Shown here: positions 12,193 to 38,784 of the stretch, piece after piece | How positions within the stretch are numbered: position 1 is the stretch's first letter | Layout: every line of letters begins with the position of its first letter | Origin: Candidatus Poribacteria bacterium | GTDB taxonomy: Bacteria > Poribacteria > WGA-4E > WGA-3G | Assembly (NCBI GenBank): GCA_964291315.2 | Contig: OZ219753.1 | Location: forward strand, 1,440,001-1,504,000 | Direction: 5' to 3' | Length of the DNA: 64,000 nt | Notes under the pieces: model-generated | Databases searched by the model: none | What the model saw: the letters and a program-made list of their open reading frames with translations, nothing else | Told to the model about the DNA's origin: nothing | Program-made: the position numbers and the translations under genes

Positions 12193-13131
12193 ATGGAAGC
12201 TTTGAACATTCTGAGCCGCTTTGATTATACACTCATGATCGTCGCCGTCGGCGCTGCACTGCTCGGGGCCGTGAGCGGCGCGCTCGGCACTTATGCGGTT
12301 CTACGCCGACAGAGTCTTCTCGGTGACGCTATCTCACACGCCGCACTGCCCGGTATCTCCCTGGCGTTTCTGCTCACAGGAAGCAAGACACCGCTGATTC
12401 TCGTACTCGGTGCAGCAATCGCAGGATGGTTGGGCACACTGCTCATTATGGCGGTTGTAAGCATGACACGTATTAAGTACGATAGCGCACTCGGTATTGT
12501 CCTTTCCACTTTTTTCGGATTTGGTCTTGTACTCCATACCCTGATTCAACGCACCGGCAATGCGAATCAAGCGGGCTTAGATACCTTTCTCTTTGGACAA
12601 GCCGCCACAATCTTAGAACGCGATGTGTTGACAATAGGGGGACTCGGTGGTGTCGCAATCACTGTTATGTTTATCTTTTGGAAAGAGTTGAAGTTGTTGG
12701 TTTTCGATGAAGGTTTCGCTGCATCGCTCGGTTTACCGACCCGCACCCTTGACGCCTTGCTCACGAGCCTCCTTGTCATAGCGATCGTTCTAGGGCTGCA
12801 AGCGGTCGGTGCAGTGTTGATGAGTGCGATGTTGGTCGCGCCTGCAGTTGCTGCACGCCAGTGGACAGACAGACTCAGTGTGATGATGCTTCTTGCTGCA
12901 TGTTTTGGCGCACTCGCTGGAGTCAGTGGAACTGTTATTAGCAGTCGAGCTGAGCGTATCCCGACCGGGCCAACCATTGTCCTATGTGCCACAGCTATCG
13001 TGGCGGTCTCAATCGCTTTTGCCTCAAACCGCGGACTTCTATGGGATTGGATACGTCAGCAACGGAATAAGCGAAACTTGAAAATGCCAACGGATGGACT
13101 ATTGAAACAACCGCAACCAGGGGACGATTAG
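12193..13131 (+). CDS. troC: Mn/Zn ABC transporter permease (TroC/MntC)
   Basis: LRRQSLLGDAISHAALPG, FLFGQAA, PTGPTIVL. Confidence 0.9.
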   Translation: MEALNILSRFDYTLMIVAVGAALLGAVSGALGTYAVLRRQSLLGDAISHAALPGISLAFLLTGSKTPLILVLGAAIAGWLGTLLIMAVVSMTRIKYDSALGIVLSTFFGFGLVLHTLIQRTGNANQAGLDTFLFGQAATILERDVLTIGGLGGVAITVMFIFWKELKLLVFDEGFAASLGLPTRTLDALLTSLLVIAIVLGLQAVGAVLMSAMLVAPAVAARQWTDRLSVMMLLAACFGALAGVSGTVISSRAERIPTGPTIVLCATAIVAVSIAFASNRGLLWDWIRQQRNKRNLKMPTDGLLKQPQPGDD

Positions 13132-14304: not shown

Positions 14305-16626
14305 ATGCATATAAAGAAACATAAAGTGAATCAGTATAGGTCTGTATGTTGTGCCCAGAAGGTATTTTTAGGGTGTGTTGCCCTTCTCTTTTTTGCAGGA
14401 GGGGCAAATGCCGATGAGGCAACACTCAAGAACCCAGACGGGTCATGGAAGTGGACGAATCGCCTCATCCATGAAACCAGCCCCTACCTGCTACTCCATG
14501 CCCATAATCCAGTAGATTGGTATCCATGGGGGGCTGAAGCATTCACGCGTGCGAAAAAAGATAACAAGCTAATTTTTCTTTCTGTCGGTTACTCCACTTG
14601 CTATTGGTGTCATGTCATGGAGCGTGAGGTGTTCTCGAACCCAGAAATCGCAGAAATGATGAATAGAGACTTCGTAAATATTAAAATTGATCGGGAAGAG
14701 CGTCCAGACCTCGACGAAATTTATATGACTGCAACACAATTGCTAACGCAGCGAGGCGGATGGCCCAATTCCGTTTTTCTCACGCCTGATCTGAAGCCGT
14801 TTTATGCCGGCACCTATTTCCCACCAACTGACATGCCCGGCAGACCAGGGTTTCCAACCATCCTTGAGGCTGTGCATGAAGCATGGATTACACGAAAGGC
14901 AGAAGTTATCGAATCCGCCAATCAGATTTCAGAAACCATTGAGATGGCAACGAACAAAGGCTTCATTTCACTGACCGCCAAACCGCCTAACAGATCCCTG
15001 ATTACTGGCGCATTAGATCACCTCCGAACGACTTATAGTCACCTCTACGGTGGATTTGGCAATGCGCCGAAATTTCCAAGCCCCGCGAACCTTGAACTTT
15101 TGCTGAATGAATATGAACGCAACCATGATCCGTTCTTGTTGGAAATGGCGATGCATACATTGGATATGATGGCTTACGGTGGAATGTATGACCAGATTGG
15201 AGGCGGGTTTCACCGGTATTCCGTTGACGCAAAATGGATCGTTCCGCATTTTGAGAAGATGCTTTACGACAACGCACAACTGGCAAAAGTATATCTCCGG
15301 GCTTATCGGTTAACCGAGGAAACACGCTATCGACGCATTGCTGAAGAGATTTTCGGTTTCGTTTTTCGAGAAATGACGGCACCCGAAGGTGGATTCTATT
15401 CAGCCTTGGACGCTGAGACAGATGCCGAGGAAGGGAAATATTACGTCTGGACCGCCGATGAGATTCAGAAGACTCTCACGAAAAAAGAGATGGAACGTTT
15501 CTCAAACGTTTACGGTGTAGATAAGGGCCCCAATTTTGAAGAGAAGAATGTTCTCTATGTCCCAGGAGGAGTCGCTGCTGAAGATGATCTGAGATCGGTT
15601 GCATCTGCACGGGAAAAACTCCTGACGACACGCGCACAGCGGGAATATCCGTTATTGGATACAAAGATCATTGTCAATTGGAACGGTCTGATGATAGACG
15701 CGCTCGCTTACGGGTACTATGTGCTTGGTGAGAAACGTTATCTCACCGCCGCCTCAAAAACCGCACAGTTTATTCTTAACACCTTGAGAAAACCTAACGG
15801 AGAATTGTGGCATACCTATACCGCCGGTATTGCAAAGCAGGATGCGTATCTTGATGACTACGCTTTTTTTGTCAAGGGCTTGCTAGGGCTGTATCATGCT
15901 GCAGGTGAGGAGAAATGGTTGCATTCAGCCAAGGCACTCACCGATACGATGATTCAACTTTTTTGGGATGCCAAAAATGGAGGCTTCTATTACACAAAGG
16001 CAGACGCGAAATACCTTATTGTCCGAACCAAAAAACCTTATGATTCAGCAATCCCCTCCGGCAATGCCGTCGCTGTCGAAAACCTTACGGAATTTGGAAA
16101 AGACTATCTCGATTATGCTGAAAAAACGTTGCACACCTTTGCCGAGTCTATGTCACAGGCCCCCTCGTCTTTCATGTATATGCTCTTTGCACTCAACCAA
16201 TACCTGACCTTAGAAGAAAGGGCCACCTCCGGGGCAGCACCGATCGTGGATGTGACTGCTCAAGTTAAATCGCTAAAAGGTGAAATACTAAATGTAGAAC
16301 TCCTTCTCAACATCGATGCCGGTTGGCATATTAACGCCAATCCAGCAGGTCAAGAGCACTTGATACCGACAACCCTGGCAGTGGATACAGATAGCCCCGT
16401 AGAAATTCTTGATATAACGTATCCTATAGGTAGGACTGCGCGTTTTGGATTTAACGATCAAGTCTTGAAGGTTTATGAAGGCATCCTGATGATTAGACTA
16501 AAACTGAAGCTGAATTCAAATTACAAGAAGAACACTCCACTTACTCTGCAACTCACCTACCAGCCTTGTAATGAGACGGAGTGTTTATTACCACAAACCT
16601 TAGACGTTCCATTGGACGTACCCTAA
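14305..16626 (+). CDS. YyaL/SSP411 family thioredoxin-domain protein with C-terminal DsbD-N-like domain
   Basis: [44 protein letters not shown]; C-terminal [11 protein letters not shown]...[12 protein letters not shown]. Start uncertain; signal-peptide-like stretch ending ANA. Confidence 0.88.
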
Positions 16627-24625: not shown

Positions 24626-24730
24626 TGTCAGTTGTCGGATTTCAGAATTTAAGGAAGATTTAGTTATCGGTTAAAGAGGCATCTGGTTAGCAAGAATGCC
24701 TGTTAACCGACAACTGATAACTGATAGCTA
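24626..24730. repeat. Palindromic element with CTGA(T/C)AA heptamer arms anchored at a stop codon (copy 1)
   Basis: AGTTATCGGTTAA..AGGCAT pairs with ATGCCT..TTAACCGACAACT; tail CCGACAACTGATAACTGATAGCTA. Confidence 0.6.
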
Positions 24731-25726
24731 TTCTTCGAATGCGGCATCAAATGCCACAGTCGACGGTTCAAAATCGTAGCCCTTGACAGCATTGCAAGAT
24801 TCCCGGGCTCCGTGTTCCCTGTCCATACCACTGTCTTCCCACTCAATGGAGAGCGGGCCCTCGTACGCCATGTTGTTTAGGGCCCGAATAATATCTTCAA
24901 AATTGATGTTTCCGCGGCCAATAGATCGGAAGTCCCAATTCCTTCTAGCATCACCAAAGTTCAGGTGTCCACCAAACACCCCGGACAACCTCGGTGTATT
25001 TGCCCACCAGACATCCTTCATGTGCACATGGTAAATCCGATGACTCAACCGTTCAAGGAAGGCGACATAGTCGACACCTTGGTATCCGAGATGGCTCGGG
25101 TCGTAGTTGAATCCGAACGTTTCTCTGCCGCTGACCGCCTCAACTGCACGTTCTGCAGTGACAATATCAAAAGCGATTTCAGTGGGATGCACTTCGAGCC
25201 CAAATTTGACACCGACTTCATCAAAAACATCGAAAATCGGGCTCCAACGGTTAGCAAAATCTTCAAACCCAGCATCAATTTGTGCAGGATCGTTCGGCGG
25301 GAAGGAGTACAACAGATGCCATATAGAACTCCCGGTGAAGCCGTTGACAACGTCTACACCGAGTTTCGCTGCTGCGCGCGCAGTGTTCTTCATTTCTTCG
25401 GCGGCACGTTCTTGAACGCCAATGGGATCACCATCCCCCCAAATTGCTTCTGACAAAATGCCCTGATGGCGGCTGTCAATATTATCACAGACGGCTTGTC
25501 CAACAAGGTGATTACTGATTGCCCAGACTTTCAGTCCGTATTTCTCGAGGAGATCGTGTCTGCCCTGACAGTAACTGTCGTCTGAGAGGGCTTTGTCGAC
25601 TTCGAAATGATCGCCCCAGCAAGCGAGCTCTAAGCCATCATAGCCCCATCCACCCGCTTTTTCTGCTAATTCTTCTAATGTTAGATCTGTCCATTGGCCT
25701 GTAAAGAGTGTTACAGGTCTTGCCAT
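24728..25726 (-). CDS. Sugar phosphate isomerase/epimerase family TIM-barrel protein
   Basis: [51 protein letters not shown]. Confidence 0.9.
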
Positions 25727-25838
25727 AATTGGTCTCCTTAATAGTAGTCTGTCGTAAATGTTAAAAATAGAGAGAGGTTTCAGCGGATAACAGTTCCGCC
25801 CTTTGGCCCCCGGCCATTAGCAAATAGTAGCGATAAAA

Positions 25839-26828
25839 TTAACTGCGTGCCTGCAAACGCGCGATCTCCTCTTGGAGTCGGGCAATTTCTAATTCTGCTT
25901 TCTGGCGTGCAACGACTTGCTGTTCGGCGTGTGTTTCGGCCTGCTGCGCCCGTGCGGCTTGTTGTTCGGCGTGTGTTTCGGCTTGCTGCGCCCGTGCGGC
26001 TTGTTGTTCGGCGTGTGTTTCGGCTTGCTGCGCCCGTGCGGTTTGCTGTTCGGCGTGTGTTTCGGCCTGCTGCGCCCGTGCGGTTTGCTGTTCGGCGTGT
26101 GTTTCGGCCTGCTGCGCCCGTGTTTCGGCTTGCTCAGCACGCTCAGTTGCTGACTCGGCAGGAGTTTGCAGCCACTTACCTGCAACCGGGTCATAAATCC
26201 CTAAACCCACTTCATTACCAGTTGCGAAGTTATCGTCCCCTTCAAAATATTCACTTGCATCTGGGTCATAAATTCCCACGCCTATAGCATCGACATGGAA
26301 ATCTAAACCGAGGGCAGTAGAATGGACACTTCCGTCTGTCCCTGGCGAGATAGCCACATACCAGCCATCAATCAAAGTAAATCCCATGAGAGACGATGGT
26401 AAGTATAGCCCCTCCACATCGTACAAGAAATAGTCTTGGATTCCCAATAAAGCATAGAGTTCCATCTTGCGACTCAAGTCGTTACGATAGGTGCTTTTGC
26501 TGGAGAACTCCATCGCGAAATCAGGCGCTTTTCCCTCCTTCCAGACGAGATACGTCCGCCGGGGTTTCTTACCTAAGCCGAAAGCAACTAGGGCATCTGG
26601 CGAGATCGACTTACGTGGATCGCCCTCGACATAATACATGAGGATATCCCCAGAAACATAAACTTCCGGCATATCTTTAAAATGTGCATCAAGGGCTGCT
26701 AAGGTCCGCGTGAGGATACGTCTGTGAAGGTCGCTAACCGCCATAGGTTTTCCATCCGAGTCGGGATAAAGTTCCGCCTCCTCTGTAGGGGCATAAGGGA
26801 TTTGGAGTCGGTGTCGATAGTTTTCCAT
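25839..26828 (-). CDS. Uma2 family (PD-(D/E)XK-like) protein with tandem-repeat coiled-coil tail
   Basis: YPDSDGKPMA, SPDALVAFG, APDFAMEFSS, YALLGIQDYFLYD. Confidence 0.88.
   Translation of the reverse strand: MENYRHRLQIPYAPTEEAELYPDSDGKPMAVSDLHRRILTRTLAALDAHFKDMPEVYVSGDILMYYVEGDPRKSISPDALVAFGLGKKPRRTYLVWKEGKAPDFAMEFSSKSTYRNDLSRKMELYALLGIQDYFLYDVEGLYLPSSLMGFTLIDGWYVAISPGTDGSVHSTALGLDFHVDAIGVGIYDPDASEYFEGDDNFATGNEVGLGIYDPVAGKWLQTPAESATERAEQAETRAQQAETHAEQQTARAQQAETHAEQQTARAQQAETHAEQQAARAQQAETHAEQQAARAQQAETHAEQQVVARQKAELEIARLQEEIARLQARS
25915..26132 (-). repeat. Coding 42-bp tandem repeat, about 5 copies (ARAQQAETHAEQQx)
   Basis: TGTTCGGCGTGTGTTTCGGC(C/T)TGCTGCGCCCGTGCGG(C/T)TTG(T/C) repeated head to tail without spacers. 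Confidence 0.95.
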
Positions 26829-26881
26829 GGAGATCCCTCCTTTTTTGTTTCATTCTATTTTCTGTGTAAACCGGTGTTCAA

Positions 26882-28054
26882 CTATTCAGGCGGTCTATAG
26901 CTGGCATCAATCCACCCACGTTGTTTACCGCTTTCAACAGCGGCATTGATGAAGTGGACACCGCGTGCCCCGTCTTGGACGGTCGGAAAATCTGTGTCAA
27001 ATTCGCCTGGTGCCTCGCCTGCAATTTTTGCTGACATTGTCCGCGCAGCGTTAACATAGATATTCGCGAACGCCTCAATAAACGCCTCAGGGTGTCCGAA
27101 GGGTATCCGTGTATTGTGCTGAACGACCTCTGCCAAATAGTCGTTACCGCGCTTGTAGACCTGTTCGGGGCGGTCCGGAAATCGGACGTAGAGATAGTTT
27201 GGGTTCTCCTGCTGCCATTCTAAGGAGGCATCGGTGCCGTAGACGCGGATACGGAGGTTGTTTTCCTCACCTACTGAGATTTGCGAGGCATAAAGCACGC
27301 CGCGCACCCCATTTTCATAATGTACCAATAGGTTGCCATCATCTTCTAACAGACGTCCCTCTACAAACGTGGTCATGTCGGCACATAGTTCTTCGATGTC
27401 GAGCCCAGTAATATAATGCGCCAAATTTTCTGCATGAGAACCAATATCTCCGATGCACGAAGAGGCACCGGCTTGCTTGGGATCAGTGCGCCAGACGGCT
27501 TGTTTCGCGCCTTCGTCTTCCAAAAATGTGGCGAGCCATCCCTGTGGATATTCTACAACGATCTTCCGAAGTGTTCCGAGTTTCCCTTCTTTCACAAGTT
27601 GGCGCGCCTGCTTCACCATGGGGTAGCCGGTATAATTGTGCGTGAGGGCGAAGACGACATCATGCTCTTCGACGAGACGGCAGAGGATCTCGGCATCGGC
27701 AACAGTGGTCGTCATAGGTTTATCACAAACGATGTGAAAACCCGCCTCAATAAAGGTTTTAGCGACATCGAAATGCACATGATTTGGGGTTACAATTGAG
27801 ACAAAGTCAATACGTTCGTCTTCGGAAAGTTGTCTCTCTTTTTCTGCCATTTCCTTATAGGAGCCATAAACCCTATTTGGATCTAAGAAGAGTTCAGCCC
27901 CTTGCTGGCGAGATTTTTCGGGAGAGGATGAGAATGCCCCGGCGACGAGGTCTATTTCCCCATCAAGCGCCGCGGCTTTTCGATGCACTGCACCGATGAA
28001 CGCATCAGGACCCCCACCCACCATGCCATAACGGATTTTTCTACCAAGTGGCAT
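26882..28054 (-). CDS. Gfo/Idh/MocA family oxidoreductase
   Basis: GMVGGGPDAFIGAVHR, IVTPNHVH, CDKPM, GDIGSHA, GHPEAFIEAFANIY. Confidence 0.92.
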   Translation of the reverse strand: MPLGRKIRYGMVGGGPDAFIGAVHRKAAALDGEIDLVAGAFSSSPEKSRQQGAELFLDPNRVYGSYKEMAEKERQLSEDERIDFVSIVTPNHVHFDVAKTFIEAGFHIVCDKPMTTTVADAEILCRLVEEHDVVFALTHNYTGYPMVKQARQLVKEGKLGTLRKIVVEYPQGWLATFLEDEGAKQAVWRTDPKQAGASSCIGDIGSHAENLAHYITGLDIEELCADMTTFVEGRLLEDDGNLLVHYENGVRGVLYASQISVGEENNLRIRVYGTDASLEWQQENPNYLYVRFPDRPEQVYKRGNDYLAEVVQHNTRIPFGHPEAFIEAFANIYVNAARTMSAKIAGEAPGEFDTDFPTVQDGARGVHFINAAVESGKQRGWIDASYRPPE

Positions 28055-28111: not shown

Positions 28112-29860
28112 TCATATCTTATCCTTTTTTTCAAGATCTTTTGAGGCATTGGTCTGCTTTCCACGCCCCGATTTCGCGTTGTGATGAGGCTGTGATTGGT
28201 CTGTAATAACCGTCTCCTCGCCGAGCATGTCGATGATTTTTACGGCTACGCGGGCATCACGGCGCGGAAGCGTTACCCTATATTGCCCCTCAACAAAATC
28301 GGACTTTCTCTCTGGCACATCACTCTCAACAATTGTGAAATGCTCGCCACTATAGTCTGCGTCAATCAGAACACAATCAATCTGTGCACGAAAGTCACCC
28401 AGCTGTTCGTCAAAGATAGTGCGGTCTAGCTCCATCCGTGCCAAGATGCTCGGGCTTAGGTAATCTGACAACGTAATCTTGACGATGAGCCCCACTCTTT
28501 CAAAGCTAACCTCTGCTTCAGCAGGGGCATACGTCGTGATACCTTCGCGTTGAATATCACGAACAATGAGCTTGTTAATCGGACGATGCCGGTTGGCTCT
28601 ATCAAGTTCTGCTTGTATGCCGACTTCACTGCCGTTGCACAAGACTGTGATGTTGCGGGTCTCGTCTGGCGAGTTTCGGAGTTCGTCTTTGATGAGCTGG
28701 ATATCCAAGCGTGTGAGCGGTTTTCCGAGATCAGCGATTTTGACCAGCGTGCCATCGAGGGTGCCGTCAAAGAAGGCGGCTTTCCTGTCGGTTTGCACGC
28801 CGTATTTAGCGATGAGGATCTGTCTGAGTTCGTGCTGGGTCTGAAAATCGTAGTTATTGATGCGGTAGTGTGCGATGCCGCGGGTTTGGTGGCTGCTGTT
28901 TTGTATTCGTTTGAGAGTTGTCTGTATGGCACCTTTATTGAGGTCAGCGGCGATCCAGCGTCTGCCGAGTTTGTCGGCTACAGCGGGGGTTGTGCCGCTG
29001 CCGACAAAGCAGTCGAGAACAATGGAGTCTTCATTCGTTGATGCGTTAAGAATACGGTCAAGCAGGGCCTCAGGCTTTTGCGTAGGGTAGTCTTCTCTTT
29101 CTTTAGACACATTAATGATGGGTTTTATGTCGTCCCACGTGTCTCTGATATATACGTCTGCAAAATAGCGACCTTTTTCATCTACCTGTTCATTAAAGAA
29201 GGGTTTCTCATAAAAGATACGTTCTTGTAAAGTATGGTGTACATATTTGCTTGACTTAGCATAAAATAATAATACATCGTGTTTTCGAGGCCAGGAATTT
29301 TTTCCAACTCCGCCTGTACGATAAGACCATATTATTTCATTTTTAAAATTGTCTTCACCAAAAACTTCATCCAGCAGAAATCTCAAATGATGGGTTTTGC
29401 GCCAGTCACAATGTAGATAGAGACTCCCTTTTTCGCTGAGGAGTTCACGCATCAAGAGGAGTCTTTCATACATAAATTGGAGGTAGTTGTCATTTGCCCA
29501 GATGTCGGTGTATTGTGTCTGCTCAATAACAGTGTGGCCTTCACCTTCTAAGTTCCTCTGATCACCGCGTAATTTTACTTTTCGCACATAATCTGCCCCG
29601 CTAGCAAATGGGGGATCGATATAAATAAGGTCTATCTTCCCACGGAAACCCTGCACAAGAAGTGTGGAGAGGATCTCCTTGTTATCTCCGTGAAAAATCA
29701 GGTTGGGGCCTTCCAAAAATTTATTGTAAGTCGGCTCTCTCTCTGGATTTTCAACGTTATAGGTTTCTATGAGTTGTGCGGGATAGGCGTTGACTGTGTC
29801 GATAGGGCGTTTGCCGACCCAGTGCAGCATCGCTCTCCCTTTAATAGGTGTGATTTTCAT
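28112..29860 (-). CDS. mod: Type III-like R-M DNA methyltransferase (Mod), copy B; beta-class N6/N4 MTase
   Basis: LIYIDPPF (motif IV), YPTQKPEALL, LDCFVGSGTT (motif I); 28-aa C-terminal extension relative to copy A. Confidence 0.88.
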   Translation of the reverse strand: MKITPIKGRAMLHWVGKRPIDTVNAYPAQLIETYNVENPEREPTYNKFLEGPNLIFHGDNKEILSTLLVQGFRGKIDLIYIDPPFASGADYVRKVKLRGDQRNLEGEGHTVIEQTQYTDIWANDNYLQFMYERLLLMRELLSEKGSLYLHCDWRKTHHLRFLLDEVFGEDNFKNEIIWSYRTGGVGKNSWPRKHDVLLFYAKSSKYVHHTLQERIFYEKPFFNEQVDEKGRYFADVYIRDTWDDIKPIINVSKEREDYPTQKPEALLDRILNASTNEDSIVLDCFVGSGTTPAVADKLGRRWIAADLNKGAIQTTLKRIQNSSHQTRGIAHYRINNYDFQTQHELRQILIAKYGVQTDRKAAFFDGTLDGTLVKIADLGKPLTRLDIQLIKDELRNSPDETRNITVLCNGSEVGIQAELDRANRHRPINKLIVRDIQREGITTYAPAEAEVSFERVGLIVKITLSDYLSPSILARMELDRTIFDEQLGDFRAQIDCVLIDADYSGEHFTIVESDVPERKSDFVEGQYRVTLPRRDARVAVKIIDMLGEETVITDQSQPHHNAKSGRGKQTNASKDLEKKDKI

Positions 29861-29918
29861 AAAGGTTCTCTATAATTTGTGTATTCACTTCGGAGGTTTC
29901 CAAATACCCACCGCTGTT

Positions 29919-30140
29919 TTAAGTGCTGACTTCAGCGAGTTGTTCTACCAATTCGCTCGGGTGAATTGATAGATACTCTCTGACCTCCAAATTCATCCTG
30001 TCAATTTCGGCAAGAAAACCACCGACGGACAGGCGATAATTTCGCGGATTGGTTTCGACCTCTCGGAGTTTTTCGATCTGCCTTTGAAAGTGTCTAATGC
30101 GTGCTAACGTTGCCTCAAGTTCTTGAGTGTTCCGAATCAT
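29919..30140 (-). CDS. Small helical protein, probable partner of the adjacent nucleotidyltransferase
   Basis: 73 aa, MIRNTQELEATLARI..., overlapping the upstream ORF by 26 nt. Confidence 0.7.
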   Translation of the reverse strand: MIRNTQELEATLARIRHFQRQIEKLREVETNPRNYRLSVGGFLAEIDRMNLEVREYLSIHPSELVEQLAEVST

Positions 30141-30579
30141 TATGAATCACCTCAACTATGCCGCGTCTTGTGTTGTCGCGTCTCATCTGCCAATACTCAA
30201 CCGTTTCTTGTTCACTGCTGAACGCTGCCAGCTTGCGAATCCAGAAAACACTTGCCCCTAAAACATCTTGGGCATCTTGATGGTCGAAAATGAGGGCAGC
30301 TTCACCATGTACCTGATCTGCATCAAACGAATCCTCCATTAGTAGAAAGATATCTATATCACCAGGAGTAGGCTTAGCTGTCACGAAAGAGCCGAATACG
30401 ATAAACCTTGCTACTTTTCCGGTACTGTTTACTAACATGTAAATACGTTCCAATCGTCGTCCAAGGAGGATTCTTTGCACACTTTTGGTACCAAAATGCT
30501 GCAAAATTTCAGTCAACGTCGCTTGATAAATCCCTATTGGGAGATCGCCTTTGTTGTCAAATTCAGGCCATTTTTTCAT
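30115..30579 (-). CDS. Pol-beta-like nucleotidyltransferase (DUF6932-like)
   Basis: N-terminal PEFDNKGDLPIGIY; FGSFVTAKPTPGDIDI (GS...DxD); C-terminal RGIVEV. Confidence 0.75.
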   Translation of the reverse strand: MKKWPEFDNKGDLPIGIYQATLTEILQHFGTKSVQRILLGRRLERIYMLVNSTGKVARFIVFGSFVTAKPTPGDIDIFLLMEDSFDADQVHGEAALIFDHQDAQDVLGASVFWIRKLAAFSSEQETVEYWQMRRDNTRRGIVEVIHNDSEHSRT

Positions 30580-30717
30580 GTGGATTCGAGTTTAGTTTAC
30601 CGTTACGTTAGTGTCCTAACAATATTTTCTTATAAACTATACCACATCTACCCAGCAAAAACCAATTTCGATAACTGACTTTCCACACCCCGGTTTCGCG
30701 TTGCGATGAAGCGGTCA

Positions 30718-32403
30718 TTAGTCTGTAACAACCGTTTCCTCGCCGAGCATGTCGATGATTTTTACGGCTACGCGGGCATCAGGACGCGGAAGCGTTACCC
30801 TATATTGCCCCTCAACAAAATCAGACTTTCTCTCCGGCACATCACTCTCAACAATTGTGAAATGCTCGCCACTGTAGTCTGTGTCAATCAGAACGCAATC
30901 AATCTGTGCCCGAAAGTCGCCCAGCTGTTCGTCAAAGACAGTGCGGTCTAGCTCCATCCGTGCCAAGATGCTCGGACTTAGATAATCTGAAAGCGTAATC
31001 TTGACGATGAGCCCCACTCTTTCAAAGCTAACCTCTGCTTCAGCGGGGGCATACGTCGTGATACCTTCGCGTTGAATATCACGAACAATGAGCTTGTTAA
31101 TCGGACGATGCCGGTTGGCTCTATCAAGTTCTGCTTGTATGCCGACTTCACTGCCGTTGCACAAGACTGTGATGTTGCGGGTCTCGTCTGGCGAGTTTCG
31201 GAGTTCATCTTTGATGAGCTGGATATCCAAGCGTGTGAGCGGTTTTCCGAGATCAGCGATTTTGACGAGCGTGCCATCCAGGGTGCCATCAAAGAAGGCG
31301 GCTTTGCGGTCGGTTTGCACGCCGTATTTAGCGATGAGGATCTGTTTAAGTTCGTGCTGGGTCTGAAAATTGTAGTTATTGATGCGGTAGTGTGCGATGC
31401 CGCGGGTTTGGTGGCTGCTGTTTTGTATGCGCTTGAGAGTTGTCTGTATGGCGCCTTTATTGAGGTCAGCGGCGATCCAGCGTCTGCCGAGTTTGTCGGC
31501 TACAGCGGGGGTTGTGCCGCTGCCGACAAAGCAGTCGAGAACAATGGAATCTTGGTTACTCGATGCTTTGAGGATACGGAAAAGAAGGTTTTCGTTTTTC
31601 TGAGTGTCAAATCCAGTTTTTTCTGAACTGAAACTCATAATTTGAATAGAGTCCATTCGGTCTATATCACTGCAATTCCAGGTATCTTCTATCGGATATC
31701 CCGCACCCTTGGGTCTACTGCCATCTCGTCGAACATAATCATCTGCATAAGGGATATACTCCTTGTTGAAAATAAAGTTGTCCTTATTTTTTGTATAAAA
31801 GTAAATGGTATCATGGTTCCTAATCCAATTTTTGGCTTTTGTCTTATAACCTGAGATCCATCCGATACGCCAGATGATTTCGCGTTGAAAATTATCTGAG
31901 CCAAACACCTCATCAAGAGCAAGACGGAGGTGGTGACTTTTATGCCAGTCACAATGCAGATAGAGACTCCCTTTTTCGCTGAGGAGTTCACGCATCAAGA
32001 GGAGTCTTTCATACATAAATTGGAGGTAGTTGTCATTTGCCCAGATGTCGGTGTATTGTGTCTGCTCAATAACAGTGTGGCCTTCACCTTCTAAGTTCCT
32101 CTGTCCGCCGCGTAGTTTCACCCTTCGCACGTAATCCGCGCCACTGTCAAATGGAGGGTCGATATAAATAAGGTCTATCTTCCCACGGAAACCCTGCACA
32201 AGAAGTGTGGAGAGGATCTCCTTGTTATCTCCGTGAAAAATCAGGTTGGGGCCTTCCAAAAATTTATCGTAAGTCGGCTCTTTCTCTGGATTTTCAACGT
32301 TATAGGTTTCTATGAGTTGTGCGGGATAGGCGTTGACTGTGTCGATAGGGCGTTTGCCGACCCAGTGCAGCATCGCTCTCCCTTTAACAGGGTTAATTTT
32401 CAT
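30718..32403 (-). CDS. mod: Type III-like R-M DNA methyltransferase (Mod), copy A
   Basis: LIYIDPPF, FDTQKNENLL, LDCFVGSGTT; near-identical to copy B outside 31549-31943. Confidence 0.88.
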   Translation of the reverse strand: MKINPVKGRAMLHWVGKRPIDTVNAYPAQLIETYNVENPEKEPTYDKFLEGPNLIFHGDNKEILSTLLVQGFRGKIDLIYIDPPFDSGADYVRRVKLRGGQRNLEGEGHTVIEQTQYTDIWANDNYLQFMYERLLLMRELLSEKGSLYLHCDWHKSHHLRLALDEVFGSDNFQREIIWRIGWISGYKTKAKNWIRNHDTIYFYTKNKDNFIFNKEYIPYADDYVRRDGSRPKGAGYPIEDTWNCSDIDRMDSIQIMSFSSEKTGFDTQKNENLLFRILKASSNQDSIVLDCFVGSGTTPAVADKLGRRWIAADLNKGAIQTTLKRIQNSSHQTRGIAHYRINNYNFQTQHELKQILIAKYGVQTDRKAAFFDGTLDGTLVKIADLGKPLTRLDIQLIKDELRNSPDETRNITVLCNGSEVGIQAELDRANRHRPINKLIVRDIQREGITTYAPAEAEVSFERVGLIVKITLSDYLSPSILARMELDRTVFDEQLGDFRAQIDCVLIDTDYSGEHFTIVESDVPERKSDFVEGQYRVTLPRPDARVAVKIIDMLGEETVVTD

Positions 32404-32505
32404 GGCGAGTACTCCTTGAAACTACACCGACCCTGATAACCCGGACGCTTAATGCGATATAGTCTCTTAGAAATGAGACAGGAAATCTCGGTTAAGTGAG
32501 CATTC

Positions 32506-35169
32506 CTACGAGACTTTTACGTTCGTGTTATCATCACGAATCCATGCCAAGACTTTTTGGACGTCCGGGACATTCTCCTTCATGAATTCTGTATCCGTAT
32601 AGATGATATGGTATTTGAAACGCTCATTAGATTGCAGCTGCCCTAAGCGTTCTACTGCCTTCTTTTTTGCTTCTACGCTTGGGTTCATGCGGTCCCTCTC
32701 AGACTTTATTTCCACGATATAGAATTCGCCGGTGCTTTTGACAATCACAAAATCCGGAAAATAGCGATGATAATTACCGTCATCACCTTTGTATTCAAAG
32801 TGGAAATCGGTTTTTTTAGCGTCTGTCAAGCCCCCAGTAAATAGGAATATCTCTACATCTTCTATTGCGGTATTTAGTGATGCCAAGACAGTCTCAAAAA
32901 ACTCTCGCTCGGGTTTGGTATCGAAGTTGTAAGGTGTATAGTGAAAACTAAGATTGCGTTGATCAAGCAAGACATCCGGATTGAACAGCAGCCTGTCGGT
33001 TCTCATCCGTTCGAGGTTTCTCTTTTGGATACGTAATCGGTGGATGTAGTCCCCGCGGTCATTTTTTTCAAAAAGAGGGCTCCCCTCGTCATCGTGCGTA
33101 TGAATTAGCGCCAGCACTTCAGATACCTCCTCTTCAATCACGCTATAATTTTGTACCTGCCTTTCCACTTGTTGGAACAGTGGATAGAGATGTGTGTTCG
33201 GAACTTCGGCTTCAGGATAGAGCCCTTTGAGTTTTTTGAGGGTCTGCATAAAAGGTAGGTGGTAGTTTGCGCTGATGCGTCTTGCCAACGCGTAGCAATC
33301 CGTTGTCCGGTGGACCGTCTCAACCGTGTCTGACTCGCCGATGCCAGCGAGAGGAGAGGTACCGCCCGTTCGCGTGAAACTCGGGGTCAGTAAGTTGCGA
33401 ATAATCGGGGGCGGTTCTTGCACGTCGGTAGGAATGCTCAACTGGATCTCTGTGGAGGCATCTTCATTCCGTACAACACGAGACACAAACCGAGAAATTT
33501 CTAGTTTCGGCAATGCCGTTTTACGAATACAGACCTCTATTTCTTCAGTTGCGGCGGTATGCCTGCTCAGGCTACCGAGGGTTGTACCGAAGTTTTCTTC
33601 TAATTCTTTATCTAGAATGGATCTGTTCTTTGTGTCCAAAAAGATTTTAGCAGGGAGCTTGTTGCCTTCCACCTGACGCAGACACCGCGTTGAGGCTTGT
33701 AGAACAAAGTTACTACTTGTTGTCTGTTCTTTTATCAAGGCACAGGCAAAGAGACTCGGACAATTCCAGCCCTCCACGCCTTTACCGATAAGCAATAGCA
33801 CACGCTTTTGACTGTCAGGATTGTTAAGTAGGTTGAACTCGTCAATCTCCGATTGACTCGATTTTTGTGTATTGACAAGTATCTGCGCTGGGCTTTCCCC
33901 GATTTTTGCCAGAGCGTTTTCAATATGCAGTTGAGAAGTTTCTAAGTGTTCTTGAGTCTTGAAGTAGAACGCAATTTTTGCTTTTGCACCGTCGGAAAGT
34001 GTTACATCTCCGTAGTGCTCAAAAAATAGGTCTATCACGTTTTGAATAACTTCTTCCTCAGCACCACTTCCAATATGGTAGTGAACTATCCCATGGTGAA
34101 GACTTTTAAGGATATTGTCCTTTATCCCCTCCGCAAGACTATACCATGCAACGACTTCGCGGAGCATCTGCCGCTTATAGTATGGCGTGCCGGTGGTGTT
34201 GATAACAGCAATCACGCCTTTCTTCTCTTTGATGTAGTTAACCGTTTCACGTACCCGTTTGAGTTCCTTGTCCATCCTATTGCCGTAGGTATGGTGTGCC
34301 TCGTCCGAGAAAACCCCCAAATTCGGCAGGCTGGCGATTTTTTGGAGACGGAGGTTCGCCTCTAACGTTGCCTGTTTCTCTTTTTCGGCAAATTCCAATT
34401 CCGTTTGATTCGCGCGTCTCCTCACTTTCGACCGAAGAGCGATTTTCTCGGTGTTTGTGATAATAACGTTGTAGGTGCTACCGGTTTGAACTTGGATTTC
34501 TTTCGCACCTGATTGCGGATAGGTGATTTTAAGGTTGGCGAGAAAGGCACGATGCAGACTAGCAGGCAGAACCTGATCAAACGGGATCTCGCTAATTTCG
34601 CGTAGACTCTCAATAATGGTTGTCCCTGGAGCAAAGACGAGGGCATTCCTCATAAATTCTCCATCCGGATAGCGCAGACCCATCGCGAATTCGGTCGCAA
34701 TAATTGTGCCGATAAGCACTGTCTTGCCGGTGCCCATGGCGAGCGCAAAAATATAGCTTGGGTAAGGAAGCATTACTGCTTCGTGAACGGGATCAATCCG
34801 CTTTTGCCTGACGAATGCGGGGTCTTTTTTTATTTTTTCAATAACATCATCCACATTTTGGATCCATTGGAGCTCGTTTGGATCCAGTGGAATGCCGAGC
34901 GCTTCAAAGAAATCCCGTTTATCCTCGCCGTAATAGTGTTTGTAGAGATCAACAATGTGTGGCGTTTTTCTCACGAGTCTCAGGAACCAATAGAGTTCCA
35001 GCGATTCGAATTGGGGGTGCCGGAGGTATTTGGGAGAAATTCGCTCTTGCGGCTCGCCCTCAAATTGATAACGTAGTATCTCGCCGATGAGCGGGTAGTC
35101 TGGACAAGGGTATCCTTCGTCGCGCCAGCTTAGTCTGTTTTCGCGGAGTTTTTCAAAAAGGTATTGCAT
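32506..35169 (-). CDS. res: Type III-like restriction subunit (SF2 helicase plus C-terminal PD-(D/E)XK nuclease)
   Basis: LAMGTGKT Walker A, DEAHH, TGTP, EGWNCP, QASTRCLR; YFPDFVIVK...IVEIK nuclease motif. Confidence 0.88.
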   Translation of the reverse strand: MQYLFEKLRENRLSWRDEGYPCPDYPLIGEILRYQFEGEPQERISPKYLRHPQFESLELYWFLRLVRKTPHIVDLYKHYYGEDKRDFFEALGIPLDPNELQWIQNVDDVIEKIKKDPAFVRQKRIDPVHEAVMLPYPSYIFALAMGTGKTVLIGTIIATEFAMGLRYPDGEFMRNALVFAPGTTIIESLREISEIPFDQVLPASLHRAFLANLKITYPQSGAKEIQVQTGSTYNVIITNTEKIALRSKVRRRANQTELEFAEKEKQATLEANLRLQKIASLPNLGVFSDEAHHTYGNRMDKELKRVRETVNYIKEKKGVIAVINTTGTPYYKRQMLREVVAWYSLAEGIKDNILKSLHHGIVHYHIGSGAEEEVIQNVIDLFFEHYGDVTLSDGAKAKIAFYFKTQEHLETSQLHIENALAKIGESPAQILVNTQKSSQSEIDEFNLLNNPDSQKRVLLLIGKGVEGWNCPSLFACALIKEQTTSSNFVLQASTRCLRQVEGNKLPAKIFLDTKNRSILDKELEENFGTTLGSLSRHTAATEEIEVCIRKTALPKLEISRFVSRVVRNEDASTEIQLSIPTDVQEPPPIIRNLLTPSFTRTGGTSPLAGIGESDTVETVHRTTDCYALARRISANYHLPFMQTLKKLKGLYPEAEVPNTHLYPLFQQVERQVQNYSVIEEEVSEVLALIHTHDDEGSPLFEKNDRGDYIHRLRIQKRNLERMRTDRLLFNPDVLLDQRNLSFHYTPYNFDTKPEREFFETVLASLNTAIEDVEIFLFTGGLTDAKKTDFHFEYKGDDGNYHRYFPDFVIVKSTGEFYIVEIKSERDRMNPSVEAKKKAVERLGQLQSNERFKYHIIYTDTEFMKENVPDVQKVLAWIRDDNTNVKVS

Positions 35170-35564
35170 TAAGCCTGTTTCCTAGTGGCGAATAATTGTT
35201 AAGAACCTAAATCGAAAAGGGTTCGATAAGATTTCTGCGAAATTGTGCGAGATCTTCCGCGCCTCTAGTAGGCAGCATGTCCAAATCCCGACTATCTATA
35301 AGAATAATAGCACTCTTAAGCAAAAGATTCAATAGAAAAGCATCGGGGCACCGGAGCCATTCTGTTATGGTTTTAACGATCTCTCGGAAATTGTTCAGAA
35401 CAGTGAGGCGCGTGAAACCGAAAACTTGGGCGACACGGTCGGCGATGAATCGCACCGCTACAAGTACCCTGAGATTTTCTGCGTCCAATGTCTTATTTTG
35501 TGGTATACTATTTGCAGAGACGAAAAGCATTCGGCTGTTTGCGGTTTAATTTAGAGGAGGTTAT

Positions 35565-36539
35565 ATGAGCACACCCTCAGAAAGAAAGTGGGATGGATCA
35601 ATTGTCCGGTATCCTGATCCGGCCATAGAAGTATTAGATCCTCGTTTTAAAAAATATACAATCGGTAATTCCGTTGTCGAACGCTTGTGGACAGGATCGC
35701 GGTGGGCAGAGGGGCCTGCCTGGTTCGGCGATGGCGGCTATTTGCTCTGGAGCGACATTCCTAACAATCGGATTCTAAAATGGGAGGAGTCGACAGGCGA
35801 GGTGAGCATCTATCGCGAACCCTCTAACTATAGCAATGGACATACCCGAGATCGACAGGGAAGACTTATCAGTTGTGAACACGGGACCCGGCGCGTCACA
35901 CGCACTGAATATGACGGAACAATTACTGTGGTGATGGACAGCTTTGAAGGTAAACGACTTAATGCCCCTAACGATGTGGCCGTTCATCCGGACGGACATA
36001 TCTGGTTTACTGATCCAGGCTACGGCATTATGCTCAACTATGAAGGACAAGTTGCCGAATTTGAATTGCCCACCTGCGTTTATCGACTCAACCCAGATAC
36101 CGGGAAGGCAACCATCGTCACCGACGAACTCGAAAAACCGAACGGTATCTGCTTTTCGCCTGACTATGAGAAACTTTATCTCGTTGATACCGGCGCAACG
36201 CACAAAGACGGAACGCCGCGCCACCTCTTTGTCTACGACGTAATAGACGGTGAACGGTTAGGCAAACAAGAGGTTTTTTGTGATACCGCCCCCGGTATTG
36301 CTGATGGAATTCGATGCGATGTTGACGGGAACTTGTGGGCAAGCGCGGGGTGGGCTGGCGACGGCTACGATGGTGTACACGTCTTTGCACGCGATGGAAT
36401 ACGAATCGGGCAGATCCATCTTCCTGAAATTTGCGCGAATCTCTGCTTCGGCGGTGTGAAACGGAATAGACTGTTTATGATGGGGAGTCAGTCTCTCTAC
36501 TCGGTTTATGTAGAGGCACAAGGGGTTCCCTATTTTTAG
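35565..36539 (+). CDS. SMP-30/gluconolactonase/LRE family protein
   Basis: WAEGPAW, SNGHTRDRQGRL, LNAPND, PNGICFSPD, ADGIRCDVDG. Confidence 0.92.
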   Translation: MSTPSERKWDGSIVRYPDPAIEVLDPRFKKYTIGNSVVERLWTGSRWAEGPAWFGDGGYLLWSDIPNNRILKWEESTGEVSIYREPSNYSNGHTRDRQGRLISCEHGTRRVTRTEYDGTITVVMDSFEGKRLNAPNDVAVHPDGHIWFTDPGYGIMLNYEGQVAEFELPTCVYRLNPDTGKATIVTDELEKPNGICFSPDYEKLYLVDTGATHKDGTPRHLFVYDVIDGERLGKQEVFCDTAPGIADGIRCDVDGNLWASAGWAGDGYDGVHVFARDGIRIGQIHLPEICANLCFGGVKRNRLFMMGSQSLYSVYVEAQGVPYF

Positions 36540-36550
36540 CTACATAAATA

Positions 36551-37363
36551 ATGGATACCTTAGAACATATAAACTGCCCTATTTGTGAACAAGATAAGAC
36601 GGAGCCGCTTTTTGATAAAGATTCTCTGTCCGTGGTTACGTGCCAGAAGTGTCAGCTACGATATGTCAACCCGCGGGTCAAACAACGAGTGCTTGAGAAG
36701 AGTTACATTGAGACCTACTATCCGCCCGATAAAATGGAACGTATCCATACAGACAGCATGGAATGGTTGCAGATGATGGAGCGGCTCATGGAATTGGAGA
36801 AACGATGTAAAAACAACGGAAAATTGTTGGATGTCGGCTGCGGCATCGGCACCTTCCTCCACCTCGCACGCCGGCGCGGTTGGCAACCGTATGGCGTTGA
36901 CCCGTCTAAGAGTGGTGTCACTTTCGCGCAAAAGATACATAAATTGGATGTGAAATGTGGAGAGGTTTTTGACGCGAATTTTCCAACCGCACATTTCGAC
37001 GCAATTACGCTTTACCATGTGTTAGAACACATCTCGGACTTAAATCTGCTGCTTGACGAGTTACGCCGGGTTCTCAAGCCACAGACAGGCGTGCTTGTCA
37101 TTGAAGTACCGAACGGTGGAAGTCTCCAAAGTTATCTCCAGAAAGCAGATTGGCCCTACGTTCATCCGCGTGACCATCTCTACTATTTCTCAGCACGTTC
37201 CTTGCCGCAGTTGCTGCAAAAACACCGTTTTCACCGCATTAGATTAGGCATACCAAAGCGCGTGAGCCCAACCCCGGGTCTCCGTTTTAAGATCCGGCAA
37301 GCGGCGACATCCGCCTTAGTCCGACTCCATTTAGGAACAGTGATTCGCGTCTATGCAAGTTAG
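36551..37363 (+). CDS. Class I SAM-dependent methyltransferase with N-terminal CxxC...CxxC motif
   Basis: CPIC...CQKC; LLDVGCGIG; YHVLEHI; EVPN. Confidence 0.85.
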   Translation: MDTLEHINCPICEQDKTEPLFDKDSLSVVTCQKCQLRYVNPRVKQRVLEKSYIETYYPPDKMERIHTDSMEWLQMMERLMELEKRCKNNGKLLDVGCGIGTFLHLARRRGWQPYGVDPSKSGVTFAQKIHKLDVKCGEVFDANFPTAHFDAITLYHVLEHISDLNLLLDELRRVLKPQTGVLVIEVPNGGSLQSYLQKADWPYVHPRDHLYYFSARSLPQLLQKHRFHRIRLGIPKRVSPTPGLRFKIRQAATSALVRLHLGTVIRVYAS

Positions 37364-37366
37364 TAG

Positions 37367-37840
37367 CTATCCCTTAGTCTCTGGTTCTTGGTAAGAGAAC
37401 GTTTGGATGACATCGTTCATCAGAAGCCGGCGCGCAATCGTTTCAAGTAATTCAGCGTTCAGGTTACCCGTGAGCCAATACTTATGTCCAGTATGCACCC
37501 GTGTGACCCCGATAATGCCCAAGTCTGTGATGCCTTTGACGGCACTATCGCCCACGGCATCGGTGACACCGGGCTTGAATCGCACTTCAAGCGTCCAATC
37601 CGTTGTAGAGCCGTTTTGAGGTGTGATAGTATAATCTTGTGTAATCGGATCAGCGAGGAGTTCAGCACCAATTCGGTCGATCACTTGCGCATCCAGGGTG
37701 CCTTCAATCCAGTAAACTGTGGCTGTTTGCACAGAATCAACACTGCGAATACCGAGATCGGTTATAGCTTCAAGGATGCCTTGTCCGATGGCATCCGGAA
37801 CTTCAGGTTTGTAGTAGACTTCAACTTTCCAATTATTCAT
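37367..37840 (-). CDS. purS: Tandem PurS-like domain protein (FGAM synthase small/N-terminal module)
   Basis: Two repeats: KPEVPDAIG...LLADPITQ and KPGVTDAVG...LLMNDVIQ. Confidence 0.7.
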   Translation of the reverse strand: MNNWKVEVYYKPEVPDAIGQGILEAITDLGIRSVDSVQTATVYWIEGTLDAQVIDRIGAELLADPITQDYTITPQNGSTTDWTLEVRFKPGVTDAVGDSAVKGITDLGIIGVTRVHTGHKYWLTGNLNAELLETIARRLLMNDVIQTFSYQEPETKG

Positions 37841-37959
37841 AGGACGTGTTTTACCGGTATTGCTTCCATGCATCCGCGGGAAGCGAAATTTCCATATGCC
37901 GACTTCCATGCCACTCCGGTGGTTTAGAAACGCATGAACTGTTCGTAGGGAAACGTGAA

Positions 37960-38784
37960 ATGTCAAAAAAACAGATAAATGTTTTGGTTTTCGGGGCCCA
38001 TCCCGACGATTGTGATATTAAAGCTGGCGGTGTCGCTGCACTGTATATGCAACAAGGGCATCGTGTTAAATTTGTTTCAGTTACAAACGGCGATGCTGGA
38101 CACCACGAAATGGGCGGCGCTCCCTTAGCACAACGCCGACACGCGGAAGCACAAGCCGCAGCCGAAGTTGTCGGCATCGAATATGAGTTGTTGGACAATC
38201 ACGACGGCGAACTAATGCCAACGTTAGAAAACCGTTATAAAATTATCCGCACGATTCGTGAATTCGGCCCGGATCTAATTATGACACATCGACCGAACGA
38301 TTACCATCCGGATCACCGGTACACCTCAACGTTGGTGCAGGATGCAGCATATATGGTTACCGTTCCGAATGTCTGTGCACTTACACCGCATCTGGAGAAA
38401 AACCCTGTTATTGCCTATCTTAGCGACGGTTTCATGAAGCCATATCCATTCACACCGGATGTTGTTGTTGGTATTGATACTGTTATTGAGCAGAAAATTG
38501 ATATGCTTCACTGCCATGTATCGCAGTTCTACGAGTGGCTTCCATACAATAGTGGAACGCTGAACAGTGTTCCTGCTGCTGATTCGGCACGCCGAGCATG
38601 GCTCGCCGAAGGACGTTTAAGGCGTTTTCGCGACCTAGCCGACCAATACCGAGATTTGCTAATAGCACGTTATGGTGAAGAGTCAGGCTTGCAAATTGAA
38701 TATGCTGAGGCGTTTGAAGGGTCTGAATACGGCTCACCACTGACTGCAGAAAATACCCTTGCCCTCTTTCCATTTTTCCAATAA
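37960..38784 (+). CDS. PIG-L/LmbE family deacetylase
   Basis: GAHPDDCD, TNGDAG, HPDHR, CHVSQ, YAEAF. Confidence 0.9.
   Translation: MSKKQINVLVFGAHPDDCDIKAGGVAALYMQQGHRVKFVSVTNGDAGHHEMGGAPLAQRRHAEAQAAAEVVGIEYELLDNHDGELMPTLENRYKIIRTIREFGPDLIMTHRPNDYHPDHRYTSTLVQDAAYMVTVPNVCALTPHLEKNPVIAYLSDGFMKPYPFTPDVVVGIDTVIEQKIDMLHCHVSQFYEWLPYNSGTLNSVPAADSARRAWLAEGRLRRFRDLADQYRDLLIARYGEESGLQIEYAEAFEGSEYGSPLTAENTLALFPFFQ

Follow-up and report, generated by a model that had tools for sequence, protein, structure and literature searches.

The window analysed here is a 64,000-nucleotide (nt) stretch from a Candidatus Poribacteria bacterium (assembly GCA_964291315.2, contig OZ219753.1, positions 1,440,001–1,504,000), and all positions given below are window positions. 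It contains a restriction-modification (R-M) locus in which a single restriction subunit gene (res) is accompanied by two modification methyltransferase genes (modA and modB) with near-identical ends and highly divergent central cassettes, where the target recognition domain (TRD) is expected. The locus is probably a chromosomal type III-like operon in which one nuclease makes use of two Mods with two specificities. A sequence-only reading of this DNA had proposed one nuclease with two specificities. The proposal is plausible given the anatomy of the locus, the intactness of both Mods and the divergence of their cassettes, but the specificities themselves are deduced from that cassette divergence.

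Anatomy of the locus

The five genes of the locus all lie on the minus strand in the order res, modA, nucleotidyltransferase (NTase), small open reading frame (ORF) and modB, as first described. The res gene (32506–35169) encodes an 887-amino acid (aa) protein with a predicted superfamily 2 (SF2; DEAH) helicase and a putative C-terminal PD-(D/E)xK/TnsA-like nuclease region. It is followed by modA (30718–32403), which encodes a 561-aa beta-class N6-adenine methyltransferase with a cassette referred to here as A-type. The next two genes encode a 154-aa DUF6932 minimal NTase (30115–30579), regarded here as a cargo gene, and its 73-aa partner (29919–30140), which overlaps the end of the NTase gene by 26 nt. 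The last gene, modB (28112–29860), encodes a 582-aa Mod paralogue with a B-type cassette and a 28-aa stop-loss tail.

A repeat search across the mod region returned direct repeats spaced 2522 and 2543 nt apart, and pairwise DNA alignment of modA and modB shows two shared blocks. The 5′ block begins at the ATG, is 460 nt long and is 95.2% identical between modA (31944–32403) and modB (29401–29860). The 3′ block is 870 nt long, is 95.9% identical between modA (30679–31548) and modB (28157–29026), and extends ~40 nt beyond the modA stop codon. At 95% identity, repeats as long as 460 and 870 nt are far more than chance would produce. The coordinates of the near-identical blocks in the sequence-only reading were accurate, except that the 5′ block begins slightly further 5′ (32403/29860 instead of 32386/29843). 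Between the blocks lie the central cassettes of modA (31549–31943, 395 nt; the TRD and adjacent motifs) and modB (29027–29400, 374 nt), which are essentially unalignable as DNA. Both are AT-rich, as had been noted, with a G+C (GC) content of 0.385 in modA and 0.374 in modB compared to 0.45–0.52 in the flanks. The same division is found in the proteins, where ModA and ModB are 93% identical in the N-terminal part, 33% in the centre and 98% in the C-terminal part, the divergent part corresponding to approximately codons 154–285 of modA.

The position of the divergent segment is that of the TRD in beta-class methyltransferases. The DPPF sequence of motif IV is found at residues 82–85 of both Mods and the FVGSG sequence of motif I at residues 292–296 of ModA and 285–289 of ModB, so that the two motifs bracket the divergent segment in both proteins as previously suggested, with motif IV before the TRD and motif I after it. 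This placement agrees with the description of beta-class and type III Mods in PMC4490356, in which the TRD sits where the variable segment of the window Mods is located.

The two copies differ at their 3′ ends. The TAA stop codon of modA is replaced by CAA in modB, and 28 extra residues are read through. The resulting lysine-rich tail (28112–28198) is present in no relative.

Identity and intactness of the two Mods

Both proteins match the Pfam family N6_N4_Mtase (PF01555; 2.4e-42 for ModA and 5.1e-44 for ModB), and the best PADLOC model for both is MTase_III (6.2e-64 for modA). The top sequence match of the Mod in the PDB is the EcoP15I Mod (4zcf_A, 1.4e-18). A structural model of ModB, of moderate confidence (predicted local distance difference test score, pLDDT, 63), has 4zcf_B as its best fold match (2.6e-17, ~616 aligned columns, template modelling score 0.37), and the matches that follow the 4zcf_B and 4zcf_A chains are the type III Mods 6k0w and 7dsu.

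All columns that are invariant across 120 aligned family members, the two window Mods included, are kept in both ModA and ModB. The codon differences between the two genes amount to 11 synonymous and 7 non-synonymous changes in the 5′ block and 21 synonymous and 6 non-synonymous changes in the 3′ block. Since the shared blocks are 4–5% diverged at the DNA level, mostly at synonymous positions, both copies seem to have persisted under constraint. Judged from their sequences, both Mods are intact and constrained.

Recurrence of tandem Mods in the family

A scan with the Res alignment, limited to one genome per species, returned 520 relatives, and the survey is based on the 80 best loci among them. 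These loci, cited below by their survey numbers (L007 and so on), come mostly from sponge-associated metagenome-assembled genomes (Poribacteria, Latescibacterota, Nitrospirales, Spongiihabitans, Poriferihabitaceae and others). A Mod is located downstream of res on the same strand in 71 of the 80 loci, that is, in 71 of the 72 loci that show a Mod, and L076 is the sole mod-first locus among the 72 with both genes. The remaining eight loci have no Mod in the locus DNA examined, mostly due to a contig end.

Tandem arrays of two or three Mods are present in four of the 71 loci. L007 has three intact Mods, L068 has two intact Mods, L016 has two intact and one broken, and L014 has two that are both frameshifted. 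An additional N-terminal Mod fragment is found in L022. The two-block structure seen in the window is also found in the DNA repeats of L007, L016 and L068. The two-Mod architecture therefore recurs in independent assemblies, which argues against an assembly artefact. The survey of relatives for different cassettes in one scaffold, which the sequence-only reading had put forward as a check, thus yielded both multi-Mod arrays and mosaic cassettes. More than one locus is present in some genomes, and one Poribacteria chromosome (OZ242325.1) carries four separate res-mod loci (L031, L037, L038 and L056), with Res proteins 60–79% identical to that of the window.

Cassette exchange within and beyond the family

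Within the multi-Mod loci, the paralogues are 90–98% identical in the N-terminal part and 94–99% identical in the C-terminal part (79% and 83% in L016), while their centres are 15–44% identical. The opposite pattern is found between loci. ModB of the window and the second Mod of L007 are 75% identical in the N-terminal part, 80% in the centre and 70% in the C-terminal part, which is a like cassette in a diverged scaffold.

The centres of 188 Mods (120 database proteins, the two window Mods included, and 68 intact genes of the 77 in the loci, with duplicates possible) fall into 39 cassette clusters, with 18 members in the A-type and 16 in the B-type. Across 58 loci (1653 non-independent pairs), the identity of the Mods follows the identity of the Res proteins in the N-terminal (Spearman 0.82) and C-terminal (0.83) parts and hardly in the centre (0.12); a correlation between scaffold and Res is also expected from co-inheritance of the operon. 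The GC content of the centre is below that of both flanks in 71 of 76 Mods. At the DNA level, the modA cassette is 85% identical to that of L009 over the whole 395 nt, and the modB cassette is 79% identical to that of the second Mod of L007 and 75% identical to that of L037. ModA has TQKN in place of TQKP, and degeneration of modA through this change was considered and rejected, since TQKN is present in 18 of 18 A-type family members and, in other scaffolds, in 98 of 144 relatives of the cassette. In L009 (9932–13848), an A-type Mod lies 62 nt after a Res ORF that is without the C-terminal nuclease region.

The cassettes are also found outside this family. Representatives of the A cassette number 298 (E <= 1e-3). 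The proteins that carry them are 120–930 aa long and varied in architecture and in the position of the cassette, and their flanks are 26–58% identical (alignments of at least 100 aa). The B cassette is found at 66–75% amino acid identity in PF01555 methylases fused to HNH or Mrr domains, whose flanking methyltransferase parts are ~31–33% (N-terminal) and 37–56% (C-terminal) identical, and at 83% identity in one TIR-fused methylase (P0256). These B-type carriers (P0256, P0266, P0275 and similar proteins) combine the methylase with an HNH, Mrr_cat or TIR domain in a single chain. Restriction or defence enzymes of several kinds thus appear to use one and the same recognition module.

For the type III mod genes of Helicobacter, Furuta and Kobayashi (2012) describe movement of TRDs by recombination at conserved motif-coding DNA (PMC3467074). 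As far as the sequences tell, the cassette pattern of the window family is the same. The import of new cassettes, which had been offered as one consequence of the long repeats, is strongly supported by this mosaicism inside and outside the family.

Origin of the second Mod

The homology between modA and modB starts at the ATG, and DNA alignment shows that the spacers upstream of the two genes are unrelated. Based on these observations, a plain tandem duplication is unlikely, and an origin by simple tandem duplication was rejected. The window differs in this respect from L007 and L068, where the spacers or the 3′ end of res have been duplicated as well. In L068 (14523–14780), the duplicated unit takes in the res 3′ end, and a fragment of the res tail precedes the second Mod. 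The gene order of L017 (res, NTase, small ORF, mod) suggests two possible routes for the window. Either a unit of NTase, small ORF and mod was joined to a res-adjacent mod and the coding flanks were subsequently homogenised, or a cassette was imported into a duplicate.

A proposed model for one nuclease with two specificities

In EcoP15I, the Mod subunits dimerise via their N-terminal and methyltransferase domains and bind Res via the methyltransferase domain and the C-terminal domain, and the two protomers divide the work, one recognising the DNA through its TRD and the other methylating it, according to PMC4490356. The corresponding parts of the window Mods are the near-identical N- and C-terminal blocks, so by analogy one Res should accept either Mod. 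In the proposed mechanism, the shared and locus-specific Mod scaffold (N-terminal domain, methyltransferase core and a 230-aa C-terminal domain) would carry the dimerisation and Res-binding surfaces, as in EcoP15I. Different central cassettes would have entered each Mod by homologous recombination at conserved motif-coding DNA. The two Mods would most likely be produced from one transcript, and each would methylate its own asymmetric adenine motif. Res would assemble with ModA2, ModB2 or ModA-ModB, so that one nuclease would restrict and the cell would be protected at two motifs. The NTase and small ORF would be unrelated cargo of the kind common in the res-mod gap of the family.

The promoter and terminator scan returned no terminator-like site between the locus genes on the coding strand. 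The scan is otherwise uninformative, since its counts are at the level of shuffled sequence (10 promoters vs 10.4 and 11 terminators vs 8.5).

The sequence-only reading had also raised the possibility of Mod heterodimers. A complex model of ModA (residues 1–345) and ModB (1–338) scored 0.78, while the best control scored 0.00. Among solved complexes, 116 of 157 come up to this mark, as do 2 of 215 mismatched pairs. At least 80% of contacts are common to the runs, with a partner pLDDT of at least 75. The structural model thus supports a ModA-ModB heterodimer, but its pass may reflect the likeness of the two proteins to the solved EcoP15I Mod2 and not a property of this particular pair.

If one Res is served by both Mods, a single extra gene would double the number of targets at which DNA entering the cell is restricted. 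Type III systems have a short asymmetric target that is methylated on one strand, and their ATP-dependent cleavage needs two sites in inverse orientation. EcoPI and EcoP15I are able to cooperate in cleavage, and if the window enzymes do likewise, a Res with two specificities would have a multiple of the site pairs at its disposal. The locus would then also be a natural test bed for the "division of labour" of EcoP15I, with mixed Mod dimers that carry two TRDs on near-identical scaffolds.

Evidence weighing against the dual-specificity reading

Several observations weigh against this interpretation, and the first of them concern Res. The protein matches Pfam ResIII at 24.4 bits, just above the cut-off of 22.5, and Tn7_TnsA-like_N at 19.6 bits, under the cut-off of 26.5, and it matches the NCBIfam restriction endonuclease model BPTD_3080 only partially. 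Its sequence shows a DEAH motif and a PDFV...EIK segment. No PADLOC model matches it, REase included, and a profile comparison with solved structures in the PDB gave no matches. The alignment of Res with the EcoPI Res of phage P1 by hhalign is weak (probability 17.7%) and covers helicase motifs V/VI only. Homology to the EcoPI Res beyond the shared helicase motifs was considered and set aside as too weak to call at this probability. An AlphaFold model of Res from a 34-sequence alignment is too poor to use (pLDDT 56.6), and its fold search against the PDB returned nothing at E <= 0.001. As a lead only, the Atlas clusters nearest to Res among its language-model neighbours contain ResIII and TnsA-like_N, and some are named "type III res subunit". 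The order of res before mod is also the reverse of the textbook mod-res arrangement. Based on these observations, the system is best described as type III-like. The type III label of the sequence-only reading suits the Mods, with EcoP15I as their best match, but it fits Res and the gene order only loosely.

The remaining points concern the Mods. We infer that the Mods differ in specificity, that both use the one Res and that they form heterodimers, and the difference in specificity is taken from the divergence of the cassettes. Part of the predicted dimer interface is located in the variable region (ModA 179–254, ModB 181–243), so that identity of the scaffolds alone does not guarantee heterodimers. 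The Shine-Dalgarno-like sequence of modB is weaker than that of modA. A B-type Mod is the sole Mod beside a full-length 920-aa Res in L037, which favours the interpretation, but the sole A-type Mod among the surveyed loci (L009) adjoins a truncated Res of 716 aa. Finally, multi-Mod arrays are in the minority and several copies are broken (both in L014, one in L016, the fragment in L022), and the arrays may therefore be short-lived.

Alternative explanations

This last point leads to the first alternative, which is that the window locus is a transient recombination intermediate. The second Mod would be left over from a cassette exchange in which one allele is still replacing another, no dual function would have been selected, and one copy would be on its way to decay or to deletion between the direct repeats. 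Besides the rarity of multi-Mod loci and their broken copies, this explanation is favoured by the direct repeats of 460 and 870 nt, which could be used for deletion given their ~95% identity, and by the aberrant stop-loss tail of modB. On the other hand, the shared blocks have diverged by 4–5% with mostly synonymous changes (21 vs 6 in the 3′ block), and L007 and L068 retain three and two intact copies. We consider a transient intermediate unlikely.

In the second alternative, only one of the Mods serves Res, and the other is a solitary methyltransferase (an epigenetic regulator or protection from another nuclease) or a silent cassette reservoir. The presence of both cassette types in methylases of other architecture, independent of this Res, is compatible with this arrangement. 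Precedents are described in M. agalactiae 5632, where the methylated motif was assignable to one of two tandem Mods (PMC9465063), and in M. hyorhinis, where only Mod1 retained both catalytic motifs (PMC13736764). In the window, however, DPPF, FVGSG and all family-invariant residues are kept in both Mods. Their C-terminal domains, which are the Res-contacting part by analogy with EcoP15I (PMC4490356), are 98% identical, and the homogeneity of scaffolds within a locus is what retained compatibility with Res predicts. A division of this kind is quite unlikely.

A recombinational or phase-variable switch, in which the locus would alternate between specificities like phasevarions or the type I hsdS shufflons, is very improbable. 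The long direct repeats are present, and poly-G or (GGCAAT)4 tracts are found at one Mod loop in some relatives, namely L013, both copies of L014, L034 and L080. However, the window has no inverted repeats of at least 30 nt between 26000 and 37000, no recombinase gene among the 15 flanking ORFs scanned and no homopolymer of at least 8 nt in modA or modB, where the only simple repeat is (AG)5 in the modB 5′ block. The description of the locus as switchable could therefore not be upheld, given that inverted repeats, a recombinase gene and a long repeat tract were not found. Deletion between the direct repeats (~2.5 kb), which had been proposed to collapse the locus to either specificity, is possible in principle but was not observed. 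Such a deletion is one-way, and an irreversible event is not a switch.

The tracts in the relatives are of some interest in their own right. Poly-G tracts of 8–9 nt are located at a shared Mod loop (gene nt ~294–355) in L013, L034 and both L014 copies, and the L014 copies are out of frame at these tracts (13020–13040 and 14825–14845). The (GGCAAT)4 of L080 is located at Mod nt 330, and L008 carries a C13 tract at nt 1035. The tracts are either phase-variation tracts or homopolymer errors of long-read sequencing, and some members of the family may be phase-variable.

The last alternative, an assembly artefact in which two strain alleles of one mod were placed in tandem, has some basis in the evidently metagenome-type source but is scarcely credible, since the copies are 0.8 kb apart, are separated by unique coding DNA (NTase and small ORF), have different upstream spacers and repeats that differ by 4–5%, and have counterparts of like architecture in independent assemblies that include complete chromosomes (L007, L016 and L068).

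Comparison with known systems

Several mod alleles in tandem with a single res have already been described in Mycoplasma, and the novelty of the window locus is limited to its variant features. In M. bovis PG45, the tandem mod genes M1-M3.Mbo45ORF167P have conserved ends and different TRDs next to one res, and Atack et al. proposed a gene duplication followed by the acquisition of new TRDs (PMC5909438). Similar tandem mods are described in M. agalactiae 5632 (MAGa1570/1580; PMC9465063) and in M. hyorhinis SK76 (mod1-mod3; PMC13736764). The window, L007, L016 and L068 resemble these loci in having tandem mods with conserved 5′ and 3′ parts, different central TRDs and one res. On the other hand, the Mycoplasma loci are mod-first and have phase-variable (GA)n tracts, whereas the window locus is res-first and has only (AG)5 in modB. 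The paralogues of M. agalactiae are ~65% identical, compared to 93–98% for the scaffolds in the window. The window locus is also unlike those of Mycoplasma in having a toxin-antitoxin-like gene pair between the copies and a Res of a different family.

The likeness to EcoP15I and EcoPI (Mod2Res1) is found in the beta-class N6-methyladenine Mod, with an N-terminal domain, methyltransferase domain, TRD and C-terminal domain, and in a Res with a predicted SF2 helicase and a putative C-terminal nuclease. The differences are the reversed gene order, a Res that is a barely detectable homologue and a nuclease region that looks TnsA-like (below cut-off). The variable segment of the TRD is also shorter, ~80–90 aa in the window compared to 122 aa in EcoP15I.

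As described in PMC3467074 and PMC5909438, the central TRDs of Helicobacter pylori mod and of the modA/modB/modH phasevarions are likewise exchanged at conserved-motif DNA, and the history of these TRDs is likewise incongruent with that of the scaffold. Those alleles usually occur as one gene per locus in different strains, whereas two alleles coexist in tandem in the window. The cassettes of the window family, unlike those alleles, are common to HNH-, Mrr- and TIR-fused methylases.

Cargo genes between res and mod

The NTase of the window matches Pfam DUF6932 (1.5e-25) and the PADLOC candidate PDC-M63A (8.5e-8). The 73-aa ORF has no significant family in Pfam, NCBIfam or PADLOC (RPW8 at E=0.0091, 16.1 bits compared to a cut-off of 30.4 bits), and its Atlas neighbours are only unnamed clusters of ~70 aa. 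It is conserved beside the NTase in L017 (86%), L030 and L063, and in L017 the pair is located between res and mod as well.

The gap between res and mod is <= 300 nt in 23 of the 71 loci and > 600 nt in 45. These gaps contain 141 predicted ORFs, of which 126 were scanned, the 15 ORFs on the opposite strand being left out. The gap genes are co-directional and of defence or toxin-antitoxin type (loci L003–L077, where res ends at ~12600, and window 29919–30579). TIR-domain proteins are found in 18 of the 45 large-gap loci, as TIR-TPR proteins in 6, as ThsB-like TIR proteins in 10, each with an 8xMP membrane protein, and as other TIR proteins in 2. Further matches of gap ORFs include FRG-TPR, DUF6978 with DUF1828, DUF5343 with Hypoth_Ymh, SDH-type proteases, ParE-like, Gp49-like, PIN and MazE-like proteins, bacterial HORMA with Fic, an AAA_15/OLD-like ATPase, and DUF6932. 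The res-mod gap looks like a cargo slot inside the R-M operon, and by this comparison the NTase pair of the window appears to belong to this cargo. A slot for defence and toxin-antitoxin genes is a more unexpected result than the tandem Mods.

An accessory effector gene inside an R-M operon is likewise described for PrrC in the type IC EcoprrI locus (PMC12707154), but the R-M type and the effectors differ and the likeness is in gene placement alone. We give a small but real chance to a broader proposal by analogy, in which res and mod form a conserved frame with an internal slot for interchangeable modules, namely extra Mods or effectors (TIR, PIN, ParE and the NTase pair). The effectors would share a transcript with the R-M genes, might be guarded by the R-M complex and would fire in a PrrC-like manner when a phage inhibits Res or Mod. 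The NTase pair and the second Mod of the window would be two uses of this slot, and ModA-ModB would let one Res cooperate between unlike sites. The literature search returned nothing on DUF6932 or on defence genes embedded in type III-like loci, and no description of tandem Mods or of a cargo slot in this res-first family, R-M systems of Poribacteria included.

Genomic context and significance

The R-M family is little studied but widespread in sponge symbionts, and it is recognised only in part by standard defence finders. The survey shows its res-first order, its cassettes common to unrelated methylases, and the frequent nesting of defence genes between res and mod. These features are important when the defence repertoire of uncultivated symbionts and their epigenomes are annotated.

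The named relatives of Res and Mod are from Candidatus Poribacteria, and the flanks of the locus contain ordinary chromosomal genes (GFO/IDH/MocA oxidoreductases, a sulfatase, xylose-isomerase-like barrels, SGL, PurS, PrmA and DnaJ). A tRNA scan found none and hence gave no clue to an integration site. A 107-aa ORF upstream of res (35207–35530) was considered as a part of the system and rejected, as it has no Pfam match and no relative in the 80 loci.

Comparison of the flanks suggests that the R-M locus has been replaced or moved within a conserved neighbourhood. A segment of L026 (6441–9730) matches the left flank of the window (35565–38784), with amino acid identities of 90% for SGL, 74% for a methyltransferase, 77% for PurS and 85% for PIG-L. 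These genes are directly upstream of res in L026, where Res is only 67% identical to that of the window and a single Mod has another cassette type. L034 (6483–8837) corresponds to the right flank of the window (24728–28054; 90% and 88%), but this segment is upstream of res in L034. The GFO and xylose-isomerase-like genes adjoin each other in L034 without the ORF that is found in the window at 25839–26828 (minus strand). This ORF has an N-terminal Uma2 "putative restriction endonuclease" domain and contains a 42-nt tandem repeat of 4.9 copies with 96% matches at 25916–26122.

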